DNA of 20,000 nt from an uncultured virus (IMG/VR IMGVR_UViG_3300029916_000002) (IMGVR_UViG_3300029916_000002); one strand, 5' to 3'. Numbered from the stretch's first letter, positions 7,497 to 15,143 are shown. Notes: generated by a model not told the origin, from the sequence alone. Made by a program: numbers and translations.

Positions 7497-9233
7497 ATGT
7501 CAACTAAAGGTAAAAAAGATGAATCAGTTAATTCTGACAGCGTTCTTGATAGGATCGGGCGTGTTCTTGACGCAAACGGCGATCCATCTGACAATTTTAC
7601 TCTCGAAGACGGACAGACGGCAATTGAAAGCCAAAATACAATTAATGCGCAAGCGGAGGCTAGAGCAAGAAAAAGCCGAATTCTAAAGCAAAATGAGGAA
7701 TCTGAATTCGAGCGCAAAAAGATTTATAAGGTGAAAGACATTATTGAAAGGGCTAAGGCTCTATCATTGCTAGGGCAGAATGCAATAAAATATATTCATT
7801 TTATTAAATCAAAACAAAACAAAGATCATCCGATTGAAATTTCCGTACGGCCCAATCCTGCCAGTGAATTAAATTTGATGGCAGTTTTTGACGCGTTGTA
7901 TGATTACGGATCTGGCTCCGTTCCATTTCCACATCAAGACACGTTCGGGCAAAGGTTAGTAGACGAATTTGGGGAACCACTAACAAATAAAAATATCCGT
8001 ATTCGTGATTTAATGACGGCTATTAATATTTGCGGAATGGACAATCCACGTTCGATTAATGTTCTTGCCGCGCTGAAAACATGGGCCGTGGATCATGAGT
8101 CAGATTTTCTGCAAGATCATTTTGAGAAAACAATTCCAAAATGGGACGGTATTAGTCGCCTGGAAACGGAACTCATTAAAATATTTGGTTCAGATGATAC
8201 GAAGTTGAATAAAGAATTTGGTCGTTATTTTTGGTTATCGTTATATAACCGAATAATGAAGCCAGGATCATTTGCTCCGTTATCGCTGGCATTAATAGGT
8301 GCTCAACGTTCAGGAAAATCTTATTTTTGTGTCCTGTTGTGCAAATATTTAATGGGTGATGAAAAGTATAAACCAGTACAGTTAGATTTAAGCGTTAATA
8401 ATTACAATAATTTTCTGCGTGATATTACAGGGAAATCCATTGTTGCGAATGTTGGCGAACAAATAGGTTTAAAAAGCGGTGACCTTAAGCGCATTAAAGA
8501 ATTTGTGCCTAAAGCCGCCGACGATTTAAATTTTAAATTCGAGAATTCTATAACGAAAGCTCGACAATGGATCGTCGTAATGGATGGTAACTCATACGAA
8601 GGTTTGCAACGTGACGAAACAGGCAACCGGCGTTTTTATCCGATGTTTGTCGGACAGTTACCGGATAAAGATGGACAGCCGGATTGGAAAAAAGAATTTA
8701 AAGCAGACTTCAGTACATTTGAACAGGATCTCTGGCAAATAATGGCAGAATGCCGTGCGTGGATGGAAGAACATTCACAGGTGGATTATGTTAAAGTTGT
8801 GGATGATATTAGTCTTAACGTCATGCAGTTTTCAGAAAAGGAACAGTCTTCGCTACGTGGCATTATTAAAGACCGTTTCATTGAAGATAACTTACTGGAT
8901 ATTTTGCTACACTGTAATTTTAGAAAAGTAGGAAAGAATTCAAAGGAACAAGGGTGGTTTACTTCTACTTTTGAAATTTTACAACAATTCTTAAACAGAA
9001 AAAAGAAGGAGCCGTTTTCAAAAACATTAAAGATGTACATGGAGGGATATGGTTTTGTTACCAAGCAAATAGCCTATCGCGGATATTTTCTAACGCGTGA
9101 TTTAAGCGAAAGAGATTTTAAACTTTATTTATTGCGCGGCGGTAAACCTGAGAAACAATTTAGCTCAGATGAATTAAAAGAATTCGAATTAGAATGTGAT
9201 CGGTTAATTAGCAAAAATTCAGGATCTTTTTAA
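7497..9233 (+). CDS. VirE/VapE-family P-loop ATPase (replicative helicase, often annotated 'primase')
   Basis: PKWDG.SRLE, Walker A GAQRSGKS and the DETGNRRFYP signature. Confidence 0.88.
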   Translation: MSTKGKKDESVNSDSVLDRIGRVLDANGDPSDNFTLEDGQTAIESQNTINAQAEARARKSRILKQNEESEFERKKIYKVKDIIERAKALSLLGQNAIKYIHFIKSKQNKDHPIEISVRPNPASELNLMAVFDALYDYGSGSVPFPHQDTFGQRLVDEFGEPLTNKNIRIRDLMTAINICGMDNPRSINVLAALKTWAVDHESDFLQDHFEKTIPKWDGISRLETELIKIFGSDDTKLNKEFGRYFWLSLYNRIMKPGSFAPLSLALIGAQRSGKSYFCVLLCKYLMGDEKYKPVQLDLSVNNYNNFLRDITGKSIVANVGEQIGLKSGDLKRIKEFVPKAADDLNFKFENSITKARQWIVVMDGNSYEGLQRDETGNRRFYPMFVGQLPDKDGQPDWKKEFKADFSTFEQDLWQIMAECRAWMEEHSQVDYVKVVDDISLNVMQFSEKEQSSLRGIIKDRFIEDNLLDILLHCNFRKVGKNSKEQGWFTSTFEILQQFLNRKKKEPFSKTLKMYMEGYGFVTKQIAYRGYFLTRDLSERDFKLYLLRGGKPEKQFSSDELKEFELECDRLISKNSGSF

Positions 9234-9267
9234 AGTGAGGTTGATATGACGACCTAATGAGGATAAA

Positions 9268-9669
9268 ATGAACTTTCTTAAAAGTGTTTGGCAAAAAATT
9301 AAACAATGGTTTAGTAAAGATGTTCAATCAAAACTAAAGGTGAATTCTATGAGCGATGCAAGCGTAATTAATAATGAAGTTAAACCGATTCAGATTGTTG
9401 ACGGTGTCGCAAATGTCATCAGTGATCCTCTCCAAGCTCAGCCGCAGCCCATTGCTCCGGTTCAAACTGGCGTGCTCCCATCAGCCGCGAATGTTAATAC
9501 TGTAACAACCGGCACTAAAACTGTAGCCGTTAATTCTGGCGTACCGGTAAAGGTTGCCCGGACGCTACAGGATAAAATATCGTTATATAAGAAATTCAAA
9601 GAAGTATTGGGAGAGGACTTTGACGATGTTGAAGCCGATTTCATCAATATCTTGGACAAACTTATCTAG
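9268..9669 (+). CDS. Hypothetical protein with amphipathic N-terminal helix
   Basis: 133 aa, SD GAGGA; low-complexity P/Q/V/T middle; followed by a terminator. Confidence 0.7.
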   Translation: MNFLKSVWQKIKQWFSKDVQSKLKVNSMSDASVINNEVKPIQIVDGVANVISDPLQAQPQPIAPVQTGVLPSAANVNTVTTGTKTVAVNSGVPVKVARTLQDKISLYKKFKEVLGEDFDDVEADFINILDKLI

Positions 9670-9711
9670 ATATAGTAGTCAGTCATCCATGGTAGTTTAT
9701 TGAAACACTTT

Positions 9712-9736
9712 AGCCGCAACTATTTGCGGCTTTTTT
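9712..9736 (+). terminator. Intrinsic terminator
   Basis: AGCCGCAA-CTAT-TTGCGGCT perfect 8-bp stem followed by a T run. Confidence 0.88.
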
Positions 9737-9751
9737 ATCACCGAAATAAAA

Positions 9752-9906
9752 TGTAAGAGAATGTAAGTACGCCGACAGGCATCCACAGAAAAGTTTAGAT
9801 TATTAAAATAAAGTTGAAACTATGGCCGCGAATTTGAATATATCAAATGATGCAGAAAGGTTAAATAATTCTTAACATATTGGCAATAGTTGTAAGATTA
9901 TGTAAG
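9752..9906. repeat. Two copies of a tandem box TGTAAGA-NN-ATGTAAG
   Basis: tgtaagagaatgtaag at 9752-9767 and tgtaagattatgtaag at 9891-9906 (14/16 identical, 10-bp internal period). Confidence 0.7.
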
Positions 9907-9990
9907 CGTTGTCGAATGTCAACGGAAAATCGGCATCTTCTCGCGAGTCTTCACGGGAAGATAAAACCCGGTGATAAAACCAATGGTGCT

Positions 9991-10209
9991 GTAAGTCATT
10001 GAAATTAAGGTGCGAGACTTTCGAAAAGTGGTAACTTTAACACTCTTCGGCAAAATGATAAAAATTTAAGACTATACGAGAGAATTACACGTTGAATATA
10101 TATTCAGCCTTTGTATCCCTGTTTAATAGTATATTCTTATATATCTCATGGTAAGCATGGTAAAGTAACCTATATATAATAATACGTCTTAATATTTTCA
10201 ATCACTTAC
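9991..10209. repeat. Symmetric (degenerate inverted-repeat) element centred near 10100; candidate origin or packaging site
   Basis: Central palindrome TGAATATATATTCA (10093-10106); inverted pairs 10030-10042/10158-10170 (11/13) and 9991-10004/10196-10209 (13/14). Confidence 0.7.
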
Positions 10210-10293
10210 GAAACTTTCATATCTTCATATCACGTGATTTTCTTGATGATTGTTCCCGTTAAGGTTACCTATCTATATGATTTTAATAACAAA

Positions 10294-10393
10294 TCGCGGC
10301 AATTTCTAGCCTCACGTCGCAATTATCACAAGTCGCGGCAATATTCAAGGACTATTTTTAAGGACTAGGATTTTGCATTGCTATCGCGGCAAT
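10294..10393 (+). repeat. Three direct repeats TCGCGGCAAT upstream of terS
   Basis: Exact copies at 10294, 10333 and 10384, plus a shortened TCGCAAT at 10317. Confidence 0.8.
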
Positions 10394-10406
10394 AAAATTT
10401 TATTAT
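10378..10406 (+). promoter_or_regulatory. Putative sigma70 promoter for terS (TTGCTA-17-TATTAT)
   Basis: Canonical spacing; SD TAAGGA and ATG 10437 follow. Confidence 0.55.
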
Positions 10407-10436
10407 GGAGTTAATATTTATTAAGGACTTTTTATC

Positions 10437-10979
10437 ATGGCTTACGACGACAGCGAAAATATGCAATTGGAGGTTGAGGAATTCTCAAAAGTTGAGTATG
10501 CGCTGATGAATCGAGCCTCTTTTGATTTATATATCGAACGTAAAATAAAAGGCACAGCCTCGGTCATTGCGTTAATGACGGCGTTCGGTTATGAGTACGC
10601 GAAGGATTTATATGTTACGCATCGAATTTATATGCTCGAAAGTAATCCGTATTATCTCGAACGATTTGACGCGCGGCTAGCTGAACTAAAATTAGCGAAA
10701 GTTTGGAATCCGGCGATGTCCGCTTATTCGCTAATTTCGTTGGTCAAGGCGGATACGACAAAAGACACGGTAAAATTAAGCGCGATAAAAGAACTGAATG
10801 TTATTTTTGGTATCACGACAGTCGACGATGCAGGCCGATCGCGAGCTGTACGAAAATTGGACGATTTTTACGCGGATCAGGTTCAGCAGGAAGACGAAAC
10901 GACGACAGCGGAGGAAGAAGAGGCGGAAAAGGCCAAAAATCCTCAACCAGAAGGCCAAGGCGACGTGCAAGAGGGGTAA
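10437..10979 (+). CDS. terS: Probable terminase small subunit
   Basis: 180 aa, helical, KLSAIKEL motif typical of the TerS oligomerisation helix, acidic tail, same strand as and upstream of terL. Confidence 0.7.
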   Translation: MAYDDSENMQLEVEEFSKVEYALMNRASFDLYIERKIKGTASVIALMTAFGYEYAKDLYVTHRIYMLESNPYYLERFDARLAELKLAKVWNPAMSAYSLISLVKADTTKDTVKLSAIKELNVIFGITTVDDAGRSRAVRKLDDFYADQVQQEDETTTAEEEEAEKAKNPQPEGQGDVQEG

Positions 10980-11007
10980 GCCATACGATTGCATTACCCT
11001 ATCAACT

Positions 11008-11040
11008 AAAAAGCCCTAGCGTCGATTCTAGGGCTTTGTC
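11008..11040. terminator. Bidirectional intrinsic terminator between convergent genes
   Basis: AAAGCCCTAG-8 nt-CTAGGGCTTT with A run on the left and T-rich tail on the right. Confidence 0.85.
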
Positions 11041-11057
11041 ATTTTGGATTGAAATCT

Positions 11058-11444
11058 TCATCCTGGGTAGGTCAAATGATTGGCGCGGCAAAGACGATAG
11101 AAATTAATTTTTTCTCTTTTTGCTCGTTCTTTAAATTCATTGCGAGCGCATAGCCATGTTAATAATCGTTGCCGTTTTAAATAGCGACTTTCTTCCGTTT
11201 CAAATCCTTTTAATTCTTCTCCCAATAACAAACCGTTAGGAATTCCGGTTGCTTTTGCAATCATATCGATTGACCATTGCATAATTTCATTAAACGACTT
11301 GCTTGAATCGTCATTTAATAATTCATTAAACCACATGTCTATTTGTGTATTCTTTTTAATTTTCTTTTTTTGTTGCAGATGATTCATAATGGTAGGCACA
11401 ATTGACTTGCCAATCTGCCTACCATTCCTGCCGTATATTATCAT
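11058..11444 (-). CDS. Small accessory protein with terminase Walker-A-like and portal-like motifs
   Basis: 128 aa; ATGA overlap with the upstream stop and SD AGGGTG support the start; motifs GRQIGKS and MIAKATGIPNGLLLGE. Confidence 0.7.
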   Translation of the reverse strand: MIIYGRNGRQIGKSIVPTIMNHLQQKKKIKKNTQIDMWFNELLNDDSSKSFNEIMQWSIDMIAKATGIPNGLLLGEELKGFETEESRYLKRQRLLTWLCARNEFKERAKREKINFYRLCRANHLTYPG

Positions 11445-11902
11445 TTAATAATCACCCTGGTATCATTCGTTCTGGCTGCGTTTTTATTGTTGAGATAAAT
11501 TTTGCCCAGATATTTAAGTCCTGCGTCTGACCAATCCAGGGAGTCGAGCGCCTGCCGGTGGCCGTCTGAGATATCGATAGCGTAGGCATTACGGTCAGCG
11601 TGCCAACATAGGCGCTCTACGACCCTGCCATCCAGGGTAATGACGTCCGCCTCGCCTATGTCCTCGCCTGAGCATTGTCCGGCGTAGTTCGTGAGTATGA
11701 GGGTCAATGCCGGGGTGACTATCTCGACGCCCATGGTTCCCTGCATCGATAAAATGGATTGTTCGGTCGCCGACTGGCCAGGATTTGACCGGTCCATCGT
11801 GGTTGATTGAAAAGTAGCCGAAACAGCATAATCTGCTGTTAATGCCGATGTTAGGATAATCACAGCAGATGTTAGAAATTTAACTTTGGTCTTAATGTTC
11901 AT
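11441..11902 (-). CDS. Exported/periplasmic protein with signal peptide and two Cys
   Basis: Start reassigned to ATG 11902 (SD AAGGA): MNIKTKVKFLTSAVIILTSALTADYAVSA is basic, then hydrophobic, with A-x-A-like sites. The longer 251-aa version overlaps the 89-aa gene. Confidence 0.75.
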   Translation of the reverse strand: MNIKTKVKFLTSAVIILTSALTADYAVSATFQSTTMDRSNPGQSATEQSILSMQGTMGVEIVTPALTLILTNYAGQCSGEDIGEADVITLDGRVVERLCWHADRNAYAIDISDGHRQALDSLDWSDAGLKYLGKIYLNNKNAARTNDTRVIIK

Positions 11903-11951
11903 TGTCATATCCTTAAAATTTATTGTCGTCATCGTTATTAACGAATTTACT

Positions 11952-12221
11952 CTATGCCCAGGGTTCCTTGTCGTCATCGACAATAACGCTACCATTTCTT
12001 TCTTTTGGAACAATATGAATCGAACGGATGTCGAGTAAATATTGTCCACGTCCATTGAGTTGTTCTCCCTGGTCATCATAGAAACGGTTAGAATCATCGC
12101 GCCACAACGCACAAAGAAAATCAGATGACGGATTGATATTTGCTGAAAATTGTAATAGTTTAACTTCTTCAAAATTGAATCCATCGACCGTAACATTACC
12201 AGTATGAGTAAATTTTATCAT
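11952..12221 (-). CDS. Hypothetical protein
   Basis: 89 aa, SD GAGG, ATGA overlap with the upstream gene. Confidence 0.75.
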   Translation of the reverse strand: MIKFTHTGNVTVDGFNFEEVKLLQFSANINPSSDFLCALWRDDSNRFYDDQGEQLNGRGQYLLDIRSIHIVPKERNGSVIVDDDKEPWA

Positions 12222-12568
12222 TTGACTACCTCGAATTTGTATATTTTTTGCTGATAAACATATGTCTTTTTGCCGACCAGTTTTAATGCTGTCCGAAATC
12301 TGGAATGTTTATGCATCGGGAGATTGTAGAATTTAAACGCAACAGCGACGGATTTAAATTCAGTCACTTTGCCGTTAAATTCTACCGTAACGTGATTACG
12401 CAAGGTTCTTTTGCGAAAAATTTCTACATCGTCCCACGTCTTTTTGATGTGCGCAGAAAGTTTAGCGTTTTTTGTGTCTTTAATGGATTGAATGGCTGCA
12501 TTCAACTCCAACTCTTGCATTAGTTCGTCATGTGTCAACTCAATCATTGTGTCATTTTCCATCGTCAT
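12218..12568 (-). CDS. Basic phage protein, putative NUMOD1-like DNA-binding domain
   Basis: V.FNG....FKSV..AF..Y.LP pattern (beta-hairpin plus helix), K/R rich; first gene after a - strand promoter. Confidence 0.5.
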   Translation of the reverse strand: MTMENDTMIELTHDELMQELELNAAIQSIKDTKNAKLSAHIKKTWDDVEIFRKRTLRNHVTVEFNGKVTEFKSVAVAFKFYNLPMHKHSRFRTALKLVGKKTYVYQQKIYKFEVVK

Positions 12569-12603
12569 CGCCTTGAATCTACATCGTTAAAACGTCAATG
12601 AAC

Positions 12604-12632
12604 ATTATCAGTCATTCAGCCAATGAACGCAA
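12604..12632 (-). promoter_or_regulatory. Putative sigma70 promoter for the inverted cassette (TTGCGT-17-GATAAT)
   Basis: Read on the - strand with a 17-bp spacer, about 35 nt upstream of ATG 12568. Confidence 0.65.
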
Positions 12633-12637
12633 GCCCT

Positions 12638-12665
12638 TTCGATACTTAAGCAAAAGTGATATATT
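12638..12665 (+). promoter_or_regulatory. Putative terL promoter (extended -10 TGaTATATT, weak -35 TTCGAT)
   Basis: A promoter here is implied because terL follows an oppositely oriented cassette; SD AGAGGA follows. Confidence 0.45.
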
Positions 12666-12693
12666 ACGTACATGATAATAAGAGGACATTCAA

Positions 12694-14097
12694 ATGTTTC
12701 AGCTTAATCCTTTCTTGCGACGCTTTTGGTCTAGGCCATCGGACGTTAAAGTTTTGCACGGCGGACGGGCAAGCTCAAAAAGCCATGATGCAGCGGGCCA
12801 TGCTATTTTTTTAGCGCAAGAATACACGTTGAAATTTCTTTGCGCACGTCAATTTCAAAATAGAATTAGTGAATCAGTTTATACGCTATTATGCGATAAA
12901 ATAGAAGCGTCCGGGTTTAAAAATGAATTTGTCATAACCAATAATTCGATTAAACATAAATACACTGGCTCAGAATTTATATTCTATGGCATTGCACGAA
13001 ATCTCTCGGAAATAAAATCTGCCGAAGGTATAGATATTCTTTGGCTCGAAGAAGCGCAATATTTAACTGAAAAACAATGGCTTACGCTTGAACCGACTAT
13101 CCGCGCCAATAACTCCGAAATATGGATCATCTTCAACCCTGAATTAATTACCGACTTTGCTTATCAGCGGTTCGTCGTTAATCCATTACCCAATTCAATC
13201 GTCCAGCGAATAAATTATGATAAAAATCCTTTCTTGTCGAAGAAAATGATCCGCGTAATTGAAATGATGTACAAAGAAAATAAAGAATTGGCAGATCATA
13301 TTTATGGTGGAGAACCATTAACTGGAGCTGATAAATCCGTCATTAATCTTAAATACGTCCTGGCGGCAAAAGATGCCCACCTTAAAGCTCCGGCGATCCT
13401 CGGAGTCGATTGGCCGGTACGTGGTATTCGTCGGACGGGTTATGATGTGGCCGACGATGGCGATGATCTAAACGCTATGGTAGATTTTATCGACAATATC
13501 ATTAGCCACGTTGAAGAATGGCATGGTTTAGAAGATGAATTGAACAAATCGGCGCACCGCGTTTACAATCATGCGAGGATAATGAACACTAGCGTAACAT
13601 TTGACGCGACGGGCGTTGGTCGTGGTGCTGGCGCAAACTTTAAAGATTTTAATGCTGAAAATAAAAAGAATAATATACCATTCCGATTAATTTATGATGC
13701 TTTCAATGCAGGCGGCGGAGTAAAAGATCCTGATGATCCGTTTATGAAACTGGCGCACTTAATCATTACTAACCATGATTACTTTGCGAATATCAAAGGC
13801 CAAGGCTGGGTAGAAGTCGCTGAACGCTTTAGAAAGACCTATGAAGTCGTTGAACTTGGCATTAAACATCCAATAGATCAACTCATTTCTATTGACACGT
13901 CGAAAGTAAAAGAACCATATTTAACGAAAATGTGCTTTGAATTGTCGACTCCTTATAAAGACCTTGATAATAATGGTCGATTCTTAGTAGAAACTAAAAA
14001 GGATCTGAAAAAACGCGACATCAAATCACCAAATATTGCCGACGCCGCGATTATGGCTGTAATGAAACCGAATAGAGAACCGGGGAGATTTTTTTAA
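12694..14097 (+). CDS. terL: Terminase large subunit, PBSX/XtmB-like
   Basis: GGRASSKS Walker A variant, WLEEAQ Walker B, PTIR and IFNP motifs, nuclease motifs GYDVADDGDD and SPNIADA. Confidence 0.96.
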   Translation: MFQLNPFLRRFWSRPSDVKVLHGGRASSKSHDAAGHAIFLAQEYTLKFLCARQFQNRISESVYTLLCDKIEASGFKNEFVITNNSIKHKYTGSEFIFYGIARNLSEIKSAEGIDILWLEEAQYLTEKQWLTLEPTIRANNSEIWIIFNPELITDFAYQRFVVNPLPNSIVQRINYDKNPFLSKKMIRVIEMMYKENKELADHIYGGEPLTGADKSVINLKYVLAAKDAHLKAPAILGVDWPVRGIRRTGYDVADDGDDLNAMVDFIDNIISHVEEWHGLEDELNKSAHRVYNHARIMNTSVTFDATGVGRGAGANFKDFNAENKKNNIPFRLIYDAFNAGGGVKDPDDPFMKLAHLIITNHDYFANIKGQGWVEVAERFRKTYEVVELGIKHPIDQLISIDTSKVKEPYLTKMCFELSTPYKDLDNNGRFLVETKKDLKKRDIKSPNIADAAIMAVMKPNREPGRFF

Positions 14098-14100
14098 TTC

Positions 14101-14505
14101 TCAACCGAATTTCATTTGAAAATCGGGCGATGATAATATATTGTCACGCCCGATTTTATCACAATAGTCGATAATATTTTTGCAATATATAAAATCTATG
14201 GCACCGTGCCATCTTATATAACGACTTGCCATGTCAGCCATGCGTTTATTTTTAGCATAATAGGCATCGAAAGCTTTTTCTTTTGTATCGTAATAACGAG
14301 TTGTCTTTGCATTCTTTTTACAACCAATAGTATAATATTCTAGATCGTCTCTAGTATATATTTTCATTGGCCCATTTTTATCTAAATGATTTTTATACCA
14401 GTGGTCAGGTACGGAAAAATAATAATATTTTGTTTCCCTTATGACAATATTAATCAATAGATAAAGTTTATTCGACCCGAATTTATAAGCGTAAAGTTGT
14501 TTCAT
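14101..14505 (-). CDS. Hypothetical protein (Tyr/Lys-rich)
   Basis: 134 aa, tightly packed in the - strand gene run. Confidence 0.7.
   Translation of the reverse strand: MKQLYAYKFGSNKLYLLINIVIRETKYYYFSVPDHWYKNHLDKNGPMKIYTRDDLEYYTIGCKKNAKTTRYYDTKEKAFDAYYAKNKRMADMASRYIRWHGAIDFIYCKNIIDYCDKIGRDNILSSPDFQMKFG
14119..14157. terminator. Long hairpin, putative bidirectional terminator after terL
   Basis: AAAATCGGGCG...CGCCCGATTTT perfect 11-bp arms plus an inner TGATAAT/ATTGTCA stem. Confidence 0.75.
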
Positions 14506-14511
14506 AATAGT

Positions 14512-14901
14512 TTACTCGAAATATTGATAACGTTTTTTATCATCAGTCCAGCAATCATGACACAATACGCGCGACTGATTGCCATAAAATACATTATCGC
14601 ATCCAGGAAATCGGCAAACGTGACGCTTTTGCACGGTATCTTTTATATAGTCCCATGAATTTGTGGTCGGAATTTCATTGATATTCTTTTCAAGCCGATC
14701 GAAATTAATGATAGAAAACTTTTTGTTGTAATATCTAGTCGCCATGAAACAACCATTAATAATACAATGGCGATGCGCTTCGGTATCGGACAAACAATTT
14801 AACAATGTGGCGCGGCCAATACCTAACTCATTAGCCAAACGAGTTTTAGAGATTTTATAAACTTTCAAAATTTCCGGTATTGTCATGACGTTTACTTGCA
14901 T
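14512..14901 (-). CDS. NinH-like HTH protein fused to a C-terminal Cys4 zinc finger
   Basis: TIPEIL..Y..SKTRLA.ELG..R.T....D....H.IING..M..R matches the lambda NinH pattern as recalled; CRFPGC...CHDC; start reassigned to ATG 14901 (SD GAGGA). Confidence 0.7.
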   Translation of the reverse strand: MQVNVMTIPEILKVYKISKTRLANELGIGRATLLNCLSDTEAHRHCIINGCFMATRYYNKKFSIINFDRLEKNINEIPTTNSWDYIKDTVQKRHVCRFPGCDNVFYGNQSRVLCHDCWTDDKKRYQYFE

Positions 14902-15143
14902 AATGTCCTCGTCATGTAGCAAATAGAAATAATCCAGGTAAGAATGCCAAATGCATTTGCAATAAAATAATTAGATAAAGATAAAACAAATCCGAAGGCG
15001 AGCAATGCGACTATGCGCCACCACTCTTCTTCAGTATATTTTTTCTTATTGGTTGGAAATTGCCAGGATACATAAGACAATATGGCAATGATGACAATTT
15101 CAATAATATCAACTGTCGGGATAAAGGCGCTTTGAAAACTCAT
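14892..15143 (-). CDS. Small membrane protein (2-3 TM)
   Basis: 83 aa with hydrophobic stretches IIEIVIIAILSYV, IVALLAFGFVLSL and FGILTWIISIC. Confidence 0.7.
   Translation of the reverse strand: MSFQSAFIPTVDIIEIVIIAILSYVSWQFPTNKKKYTEEEWWRIVALLAFGFVLSLSNYFIANAFGILTWIISICYMTRTLCK

Follow-up and report, generated by a model that had tools for sequence, protein, structure and literature searches.

A narrowly distributed small gene in the terS-terL gap of a putative PB1-like peat phage and its sub-threshold likeness to portal proteins

The window, that is, the whole stretch of 20,000 nucleotides of DNA from an uncultured virus (IMGVR_UViG_3300029916_000002) that we analysed, carries the genes of the small and the large terminase, and between them a cassette of four genes that is read leftward in the order g116, g89, g153, g128 (Table 1). 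Its last gene, g128, is the feature under study. The cassette ends at a hairpin terminator that it has in common with the convergent, rightward terS; a T-run follows the stem on the plus strand, and an A-run precedes the hairpin on the other strand. Sigma-70-like matches are no more numerous in the region than in shuffled sequences, so that the promoter listed for the cassette is a weak candidate.

Table 1. Features of the terS-terL region, with positions counted from the first letter of the window
Feature	Position	Strand	Evidence and remarks
terS (small terminase)	10437..10979	+	PDB 7uxe 'Small terminase' 1.2e-30; phrog_4783 4.6e-45
Hairpin terminator	11010..11037	.	Between convergent terS and g128; terminator scan, 10-pair stem
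g128 (feature under study)	11058..11444	minus	128-aa CDS in ORF list; stop codon 11058-11060
g128 aa84-128, long basic helix and C-terminal tail	11061..11195	minus	Net charge +7; model helices H84-111 and H115-121
g128 aa48-87, portal-like conserved core	11184..11303	minus	19-residue helix, G-I-P turn, 5-residue helix, acidic loop
g128 aa1-14, short hydrophobic start and G..GR..GKS	11403..11444	minus	P-loop-like, non-canonical in the window
g153	about 11441..11902	minus	N-terminal hydrophobic signal-like stretch; start is the Met before that stretch, chosen by eye
Shine-Dalgarno-like AGGGTG	11453..11458	minus	8 nt 5' of the g128 ATG; direct reading of the minus strand
g89	11952..12221	minus	Second cassette gene, no family; start overlaps the g116 stop
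g116	12218..12568	minus	First cassette gene; phrog_4730 2.8e-23; homologues in L017, L018 and L019
Sigma-70-like promoter match	12675..12702	minus	Consensus scan, 9/12 positions; could drive the leftward cassette
terL (large terminase, intein-free)	12694..14097	+	Terminase_3 3e-33; contains GGRASSKS; 60% identical to Pbunavirus TerL

Judged by its sequence, the phage is a PB1/E217-like phage of about 67 kb from peat. TerL is 60-61% identical to its Pbunavirus counterparts (E217, LMA2), and the window DNA was found in 22 peat-metagenome runs, all of them flagged as possible sources of the same assembly. A metagenome contig of 134,460 bp carries the locus twice, 67,232 bp apart, with both copies 100% identical to the window. 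Because of these two identical copies we take the genome unit to be about 67 kb and the contig to be a concatemer of two copies, which is what a circularly permuted or terminally redundant genome would be expected to give. In E217, terL is also flanked by small leftward hypothetical genes, which differ from those of the window, and in a more distant relative (L019) terS and terL are separated by about 9 kb of other small genes. The stretch between the two terminase genes is therefore accessory and variable in this phage group. In the closer relative L017, the TerL (L017:7055-9589, plus strand; 77% identical to that of the window) is an 844-aa protein with an intein inside the Walker A P-loop, recognised by Hom_end_hint (3.5e-15), LAGLIDADG_3 (5e-7) and Hom_end (3.5e-5). 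Since this intein sits exactly there, the P-loop site of TerL appears to be recombinationally active in the group.

The other genes of the cassette have features of their own. g153, which is translationally coupled to g128, starts by eye like a Sec signal, with a basic and then a hydrophobic stretch ending in A-x-A; owing to this N-terminus the protein is probably exported, and it may be of the superinfection-exclusion type. Its homologue in L017 and L018 is 40% identical and has a similar N-terminus. The GC content of g153 is 0.49 (window, 0.376). g116 is the sole cassette gene that is conserved as far as L019, and nine PADLOC models match it at E<=1 (eight of PDC-S05, a candidate system, and one of PDC-S23; best E 1.2e-4, aa25-85); no PADLOC family is matched by g128. 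g89 is the most divergent gene of the cassette between the window and L016 (92.6% DNA identity, with 99-100% for its neighbours), and the peat metatranscriptome contigs that lie over it (window 11962-12230) show 5 and 14 differences, pointing to a variant strain.

A preliminary description had placed a 128-aa protein between the two terminase genes and had chosen a start codon that includes the GKS motif near the N-terminus. All of this stood up. The ORF list reproduces the protein, on the minus strand, both neighbours were identified by sequence match, and g128 is oriented opposite to both. The start codon (ATG, 11444-11442) shares an ATGA (11444-11441) with the TGA of the upstream gene and is preceded by the Shine-Dalgarno-like sequence of Table 1. 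Furthermore, in P0004, a homologue as long as g128, no Met stands between M1 and M55; the conserved N-terminus of P0004 must therefore be translated, which supports the start that includes the motif.

That g128 is no gene at all, i.e. a chance open frame in the spacer between terS and terL, can hardly be believed. Such a reading could draw on the lack of expression evidence, of a family and of more than a few homologues. From the two metatranscriptome runs of peat came seven short contigs for positions 9000-15000, which lie on the 3' end of a VapE-like gene (9012-9309), on terS and on g89; no contig covers g128, and the uncovered part is uninformative. The only relative at the DNA level differs in 3 codons, all non-synonymous and all in the C-terminal tail, and dN/dS is uninformative. 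Against the chance frame stand P0004, which is 68% identical over an equal length of 128 aa, free of stops and conserved in blocks, the ATGA coupling with its Shine-Dalgarno sequence, the existence of a syntenic relative (P0006, below), and the fit of the frame, which occupies exactly the interval from g153 to the terminator. On account of the same-length homologue, the conserved blocks, the start signals and the syntenic relative, sequence comparison identifies g128 as a genuine protein-coding gene, narrowly distributed and accessory.

The narrow distribution emerged from several searches. Of 19 candidates from a word-indexed search, 4 proteins had E<=0.01; three are near-identical to g128 (98-99%), and the fourth is P0004. 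Conservation between g128 and P0004 falls into the blocks G8, R9, G12-P17, I62-P69, E77-T83 and L94 to the C-terminus, and the C-terminal stretch (invariant columns 91-127) is among the best conserved. Exhaustive phmmer against 1.84 billion representatives added one further cluster only, P0005, a 1565-aa repeat protein (E 2e-7) that matches aa15-49 seven times and was rejected as a repeat-inflated chance match. L101, a 45% match over 40 residues, was also set aside, as it lies in an unrelated high-GC integrase context. The syntenic relative P0006 (113 aa; L017:5040-5381, minus strand) is encoded in L017 and L018, whose TerL is 77% identical to that of the window, between the terS and g153 homologues and on the same strand as g128 in the window; it aligns to g128 aa42-120 with a BLASTP E of 0.010 in a single comparison. 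A profile search found P0007 (72 aa), whose likeness to P0006 is confined to the N-terminal core. With g128 both have in common the helix/G-I-P/LL core only; P0006 carries the short C-terminal motifs N.L.YP and FY..CR in swapped order with respect to g128, and P0007 has neither. At E<=1 the family profile found no member in any of the 21 other PB1-like genomes. The family was absent from 50,697 phage records (INPHARED), where tblastn of g128 gave no match at E<=1, and a search for longer homologues in which a terminase ATPase or a portal domain can be recognised found none among 374 candidates.

The first 14 residues had been described as a terminase Walker-A-like N-terminus that is followed by no Walker B or ATPase core and is not a local duplication of the TerL motif GGRASSKS. 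The second and the third of these statements agree with our results; the terminase origin does not. No Walker B or multi-strand ATPase core follows the motif within the 128 aa, the structure model is mostly helical, and Pfam, PHROGs and NCBIfam gave no ATPase family. As the model consists of helices after the first 15 residues, an ATPase core has no place in it, and g128 is neither an ATPase nor a terminase. No DNA repeat links g128 and terL, and BLASTP of g128 or P0004 against the phage's own TerL gave no HSP at the Walker A motif. The HSP that did appear joins g128 aa84-96 to TerL residues 119-131, next to the TerL Walker B, and was discarded as being at chance level (E 0.44). Searched separately, aa1-30 matched 0 Pfam families at E<=10, and for the whole protein Pfam, PHROGs and NCBIfam yielded neither terminases nor P-loop families.

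The motif itself is non-canonical in the window. NGRQIGKS misses the strict Walker A pattern [AG]xxxxGK[ST], having N at the first position, and fits only the loose Gx3GKS, which is present in 0.9% of 20,000 shuffles. P0004 carries the canonical GGRVEGKS (strict pattern, about 0.3% of shuffles). P0006 has a strict Walker-A-type pattern of its own (about 0.2% of shuffles), which stands after the core, so that the order of g128 is inverted; chance is not a comfortable explanation for its presence at this other position. P0007 is without a GKS motif.

These patterns could belong to a minimal phosphate or nucleotide binder, in which the N-terminal strand, glycine-rich loop, GKS and helix form a working P-loop, perhaps in an oligomer, and the basic helices hold RNA or DNA. 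What speaks for such a protein is that G8, R9 and G12-K13-S14 are invariant between g128 and P0004 together with the hydrophobic helix that follows (I15, V16 and P17 are invariant too), while the flanks diverge; that the strict pattern occurs in P0004 and independently in P0006; and that the proteins are basic, with a pI of 9.2-9.8 (9.8 for g128) and a net charge of +7 in the C-terminal third. However, the window motif lacks the first glycine of the pattern, the g128 model shows a beta-hairpin in place of strand-loop-helix (at low confidence), and no P-loop family is matched. In addition, P0007 lacks the motif, neither P0006 nor P0007 is basic, and the best rows of the fold search, AAA+ lid domains at Z 4.3-5.8, are at noise level for helical models. 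We consider a phosphate binder improbable.

The preliminary description had further proposed that g128 is a chimera of terminase and portal gene pieces. Spelled out, recombination or deletion would have joined the start of terL (strand and Walker A) to an internal piece of the portal gene, and the fusion was kept. The gene order terL then portal is found in many phages, and the order of the two likenesses in g128, P-loop first and portal second, is the same. In P0004, GGRVEGKS is preceded by aromatic residues and comes closer to the HGGRASSKS of TerL than the window's version does, and the intein of the relative lies exactly in the TerL P-loop. Against this, aa1-30 has neither terminase profile nor BLAST support, there is no DNA similarity to terL, and the portal evidence is itself sub-threshold (see below). 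Moreover, P0006 has the two motifs in opposite order and P0007 has no GKS motif, and a single fusion event therefore does not fit. With the terminase half failing and the portal half below threshold, descent of g128 as a chimera is very improbable.

The second half of the proposal, a portal-like helix-loop at aa50-81, fared better in part. If the likeness is more than chance, one reading is that of a selected portal-motif mimic, in which aa45-111 copy the helix, G-x-P turn, flexible loop and long helix of a portal and thereby engage whatever recognises this element. It could engage neighbouring portal subunits, so that ring assembly is modulated or poisoned, possibly in a competing phage, or it could engage a host sensor of portal proteins, with g128 as bait or blocker. 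We regard such a mimic as a serious possibility, though on balance an unlikely one.

Several matches argue for it. The whole of g128 matched PF04860 (Phage_portal) at E 0.064 (12.9 bits; aa41-98 on profile positions 206-265), and with aa41-100 alone PF04860 was the sole Pfam family (E 0.031, 13.9 bits). In NCBIfam the sole match was TIGR01537 (portal_HK97; E 0.056, 12.6 bits, aa48-90). Among the 30 nearest clusters in a language-model Atlas, 22 belong to portal families (18 Portal_T4, 3 Phage_portal_2, 1 Phage_portal_3; score 0.92). As the phage's own portal lies outside the window, we used E217 gp19 as a stand-in, a protein identified as a portal by PF06381 (Phage_portal_3, 6e-99). BLASTP aligned g128 aa45-81 to gp19 residues 352-388 with 11 of 37 residues identical (E 0.022, single comparison), and an HMM that we built from 71 PB1-like portals aligned g128 aa59-82 there as well (E 0.022 at Z=1). 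This stretch is one of the most conserved in the 71 portals. Of its invariant pattern P..K.LGT.P.GF, the P, L, G, G and F are matched in g128, and the invariant K379, T383, P385 and G392 are without a match. Within the g128 family the portal-like stretch is a conserved core and not a drifting remnant, as aa48-87 are shared with P0006 and P0007 and are the part common to all three subfamilies.

Nevertheless, none of these scores reaches a threshold: the curated cut-offs are 39.1 bits for PF04860 (12.9-13.9 for g128) and 112.05 bits for TIGR01537 (12.6). PF06381 was not reported for the whole of g128 at E<=1, and unrelated families gave similar E-values (SAM_CEP-1_C, E 0.037, for g128, and others for the neighbour genes). 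The Atlas neighbours share 135-142 of 256 features with g128, the range of chance or distant matches. Profile-profile comparison by hhalign of the g128 alignment with 22 portals was not significant (P 0.25). The signal is also lost in the homologues: P0004 gave no portal match at E<=1, P0006 gave none in Pfam, PHROGs or the Atlas, and neither was reported by the HMM of the 71 PB1-like portals. Conversely, the g128 family profile detected the portal in none of the 21 related genomes that each encode one; with TerL at most 61% identical to that of the window, none of these 21 records is the window's own phage. tblastn of aa41-100 against the 50,697 phage records found nothing at E<=10. The stretch, moreover, is closer to the HK97-type consensus than to the kind of portal found in its own phage group, which one would not expect of a self-copy. 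Finally, the gene was selected by eye for this very motif, which enriches chance matches; since the motif was chosen among many ORFs, library-wide E-values near 0.05 are as expected. By eye, the segment after the G-I-P turn is rich in Gly and Leu and free of basic or polar residues, and helix-turn-helix profiles were reported neither for the whole protein at E<=1 nor for aa41-100 at E<=10, in a search whose HMMER filters drop most weak matches.

Structure prediction gave a similarly divided picture. The g128 model (pLDDT 63.6) is mostly helical with 6 helices, among them H48-66 and H70-74, followed by a loop and the two C-terminal helices of Table 1. An AlphaFold model of a PB1-like portal (pLDDT 63) has helices at 355-373 and 377-381, a low-confidence loop at 382-391 and a helix at 392-425. 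At the BLAST offset of 307 the helices of the two models coincide, and this agreement in register speaks for a mimic. By the general architecture of portals, the matched element would comprise the second stem helix, the tunnel loop and the long wing helix. With 128 aa, set against portal domains of about 350 positions, g128 does not contain the full portal fold with wing, stem, clip and crown that forms a 12-mer ring. But no portal was among the significant fold matches: Foldseek of the g128 model found nothing in the PDB at E<=0.001, the best of the 48,161 chains compared by VIA-align reached Z 5.8, and the BFVD search was likewise empty at E<=0.001, its 50 rows including two portals at E about 3. 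A complex prediction of g128 with the stand-in PB1-like portal (residues 97-528) scored 0.00 and 0.00 and is evidence neither way. In the cryo-EM study of E217, portal residues 97-528 were modelled (PMC10329688); the C-terminal inorganic pyrophosphatase-like (InPase) domain of gp19 (L007:625-2922; PF18823, 3.1e-43, aa635-753) lies beyond them. The proposed portal-like helix-loop is weakly supported, as a resemblance in sequence and in predicted secondary structure whose scores stay below threshold.

Avs1-4 sensors are reported to bind portal and large terminase (bioRxiv 10.64898/2026.01.04.697583), which argues for a portal mimic. In a broader idea, g128 and its syntenic relatives are small proteins that put the best-conserved short elements of the packaging machinery on display, namely the channel-side helix-turn-loop of the portal and a terminase-type P-loop, as bait or competitor. 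The order of the elements could be P-loop before portal motif (g128, P0004), portal motif before P-loop (P0006) or portal motif alone (P0007), and such proteins could be aimed at STAND sensors by which the host reads portal and terminase, or at the packaging motor of another, competing phage. We think this unlikely, and more so than the portal mimic alone.

The explanation that we prefer is plainer, and we give it about as much credence as doubt: g128 would be an orphan accessory binding protein, basic and helical, whose portal and P-loop likenesses are coincidence or convergence. As the last gene of the leftward accessory cassette that fills the variable terS-terL gap, it would have three selected parts, namely the G..GR..GKSIVP N-terminus, the aa48-87 core and the long basic C-terminal helix. 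It may act stoichiometrically as a small binding protein and could serve, like other factors found in cassettes of this sort, in host takeover or competition. Docking would take place on the helical hairpin, and the basic helix would favour binding to nucleic acid or to an acidic surface of a protein. An early or accessory timing, the mode of binding and any target are what we infer. By the comparisons above, the portal likeness is real as a resemblance and at chance level statistically, and we ascribe it to coincidence or convergence unless comparison with the phage's own portal tells against this. Several findings run counter to this plain reading: the portal signal recurs, on the same motif, across partly dependent methods (two HMM libraries, the Atlas, BLASTP and our own HMM), the predicted helices agree in register with those of a portal model, the portal-like stretch is the conserved core of the family, and the Walker-A-type pattern recurs independently in P0006.

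As it stands, g128 is an ordinary case, a further orphan accessory gene of a variable cassette. If the portal likeness were functional, a small phage protein that displays portal and terminase elements would be a new type of counter-measure or an inter-phage weapon. What the Avs sensors of bacteria recognise is portal and large terminase. Judged by title and abstract, a literature search found no paper on a small portal-mimic, decoy or portal-fragment protein of this kind. The match of helices in register and the independent recurrence of a Walker-A-type pattern in a relative are reasons for continued interest.

HK97-type portals (PF04860, TIGR01537; profile positions about 206-271) show, like g128, a helix that leads to a turn of small residues or G-[IV]-P, then LL(G) and a loop, whereas their portal domain comprises at least 300 aa and includes the wing, clip and crown that g128, with its 128 aa, lacks. 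With E217 gp19 (PDB 8fvh, 9b41) and the 71 PB1-like portals it shares the P, LLG and KGF, and the predicted helix lengths are in register. The Terminase_3 large terminases, such as the phage's own TerL (PF04466), have in common with it a hydrophobic or aromatic run followed by G-G/R...KS, and P0004 fits GxxxxGKS; g128 itself differs from them in having no strict Walker A, Walker B, ATPase fold, profile match or BLAST match. Although they show no sequence similarity to g128, E217 gp01-gp04 and gp06-gp18 of Pbunavirus, all hypothetical proteins, resemble it in genomic niche, orientation and size class.
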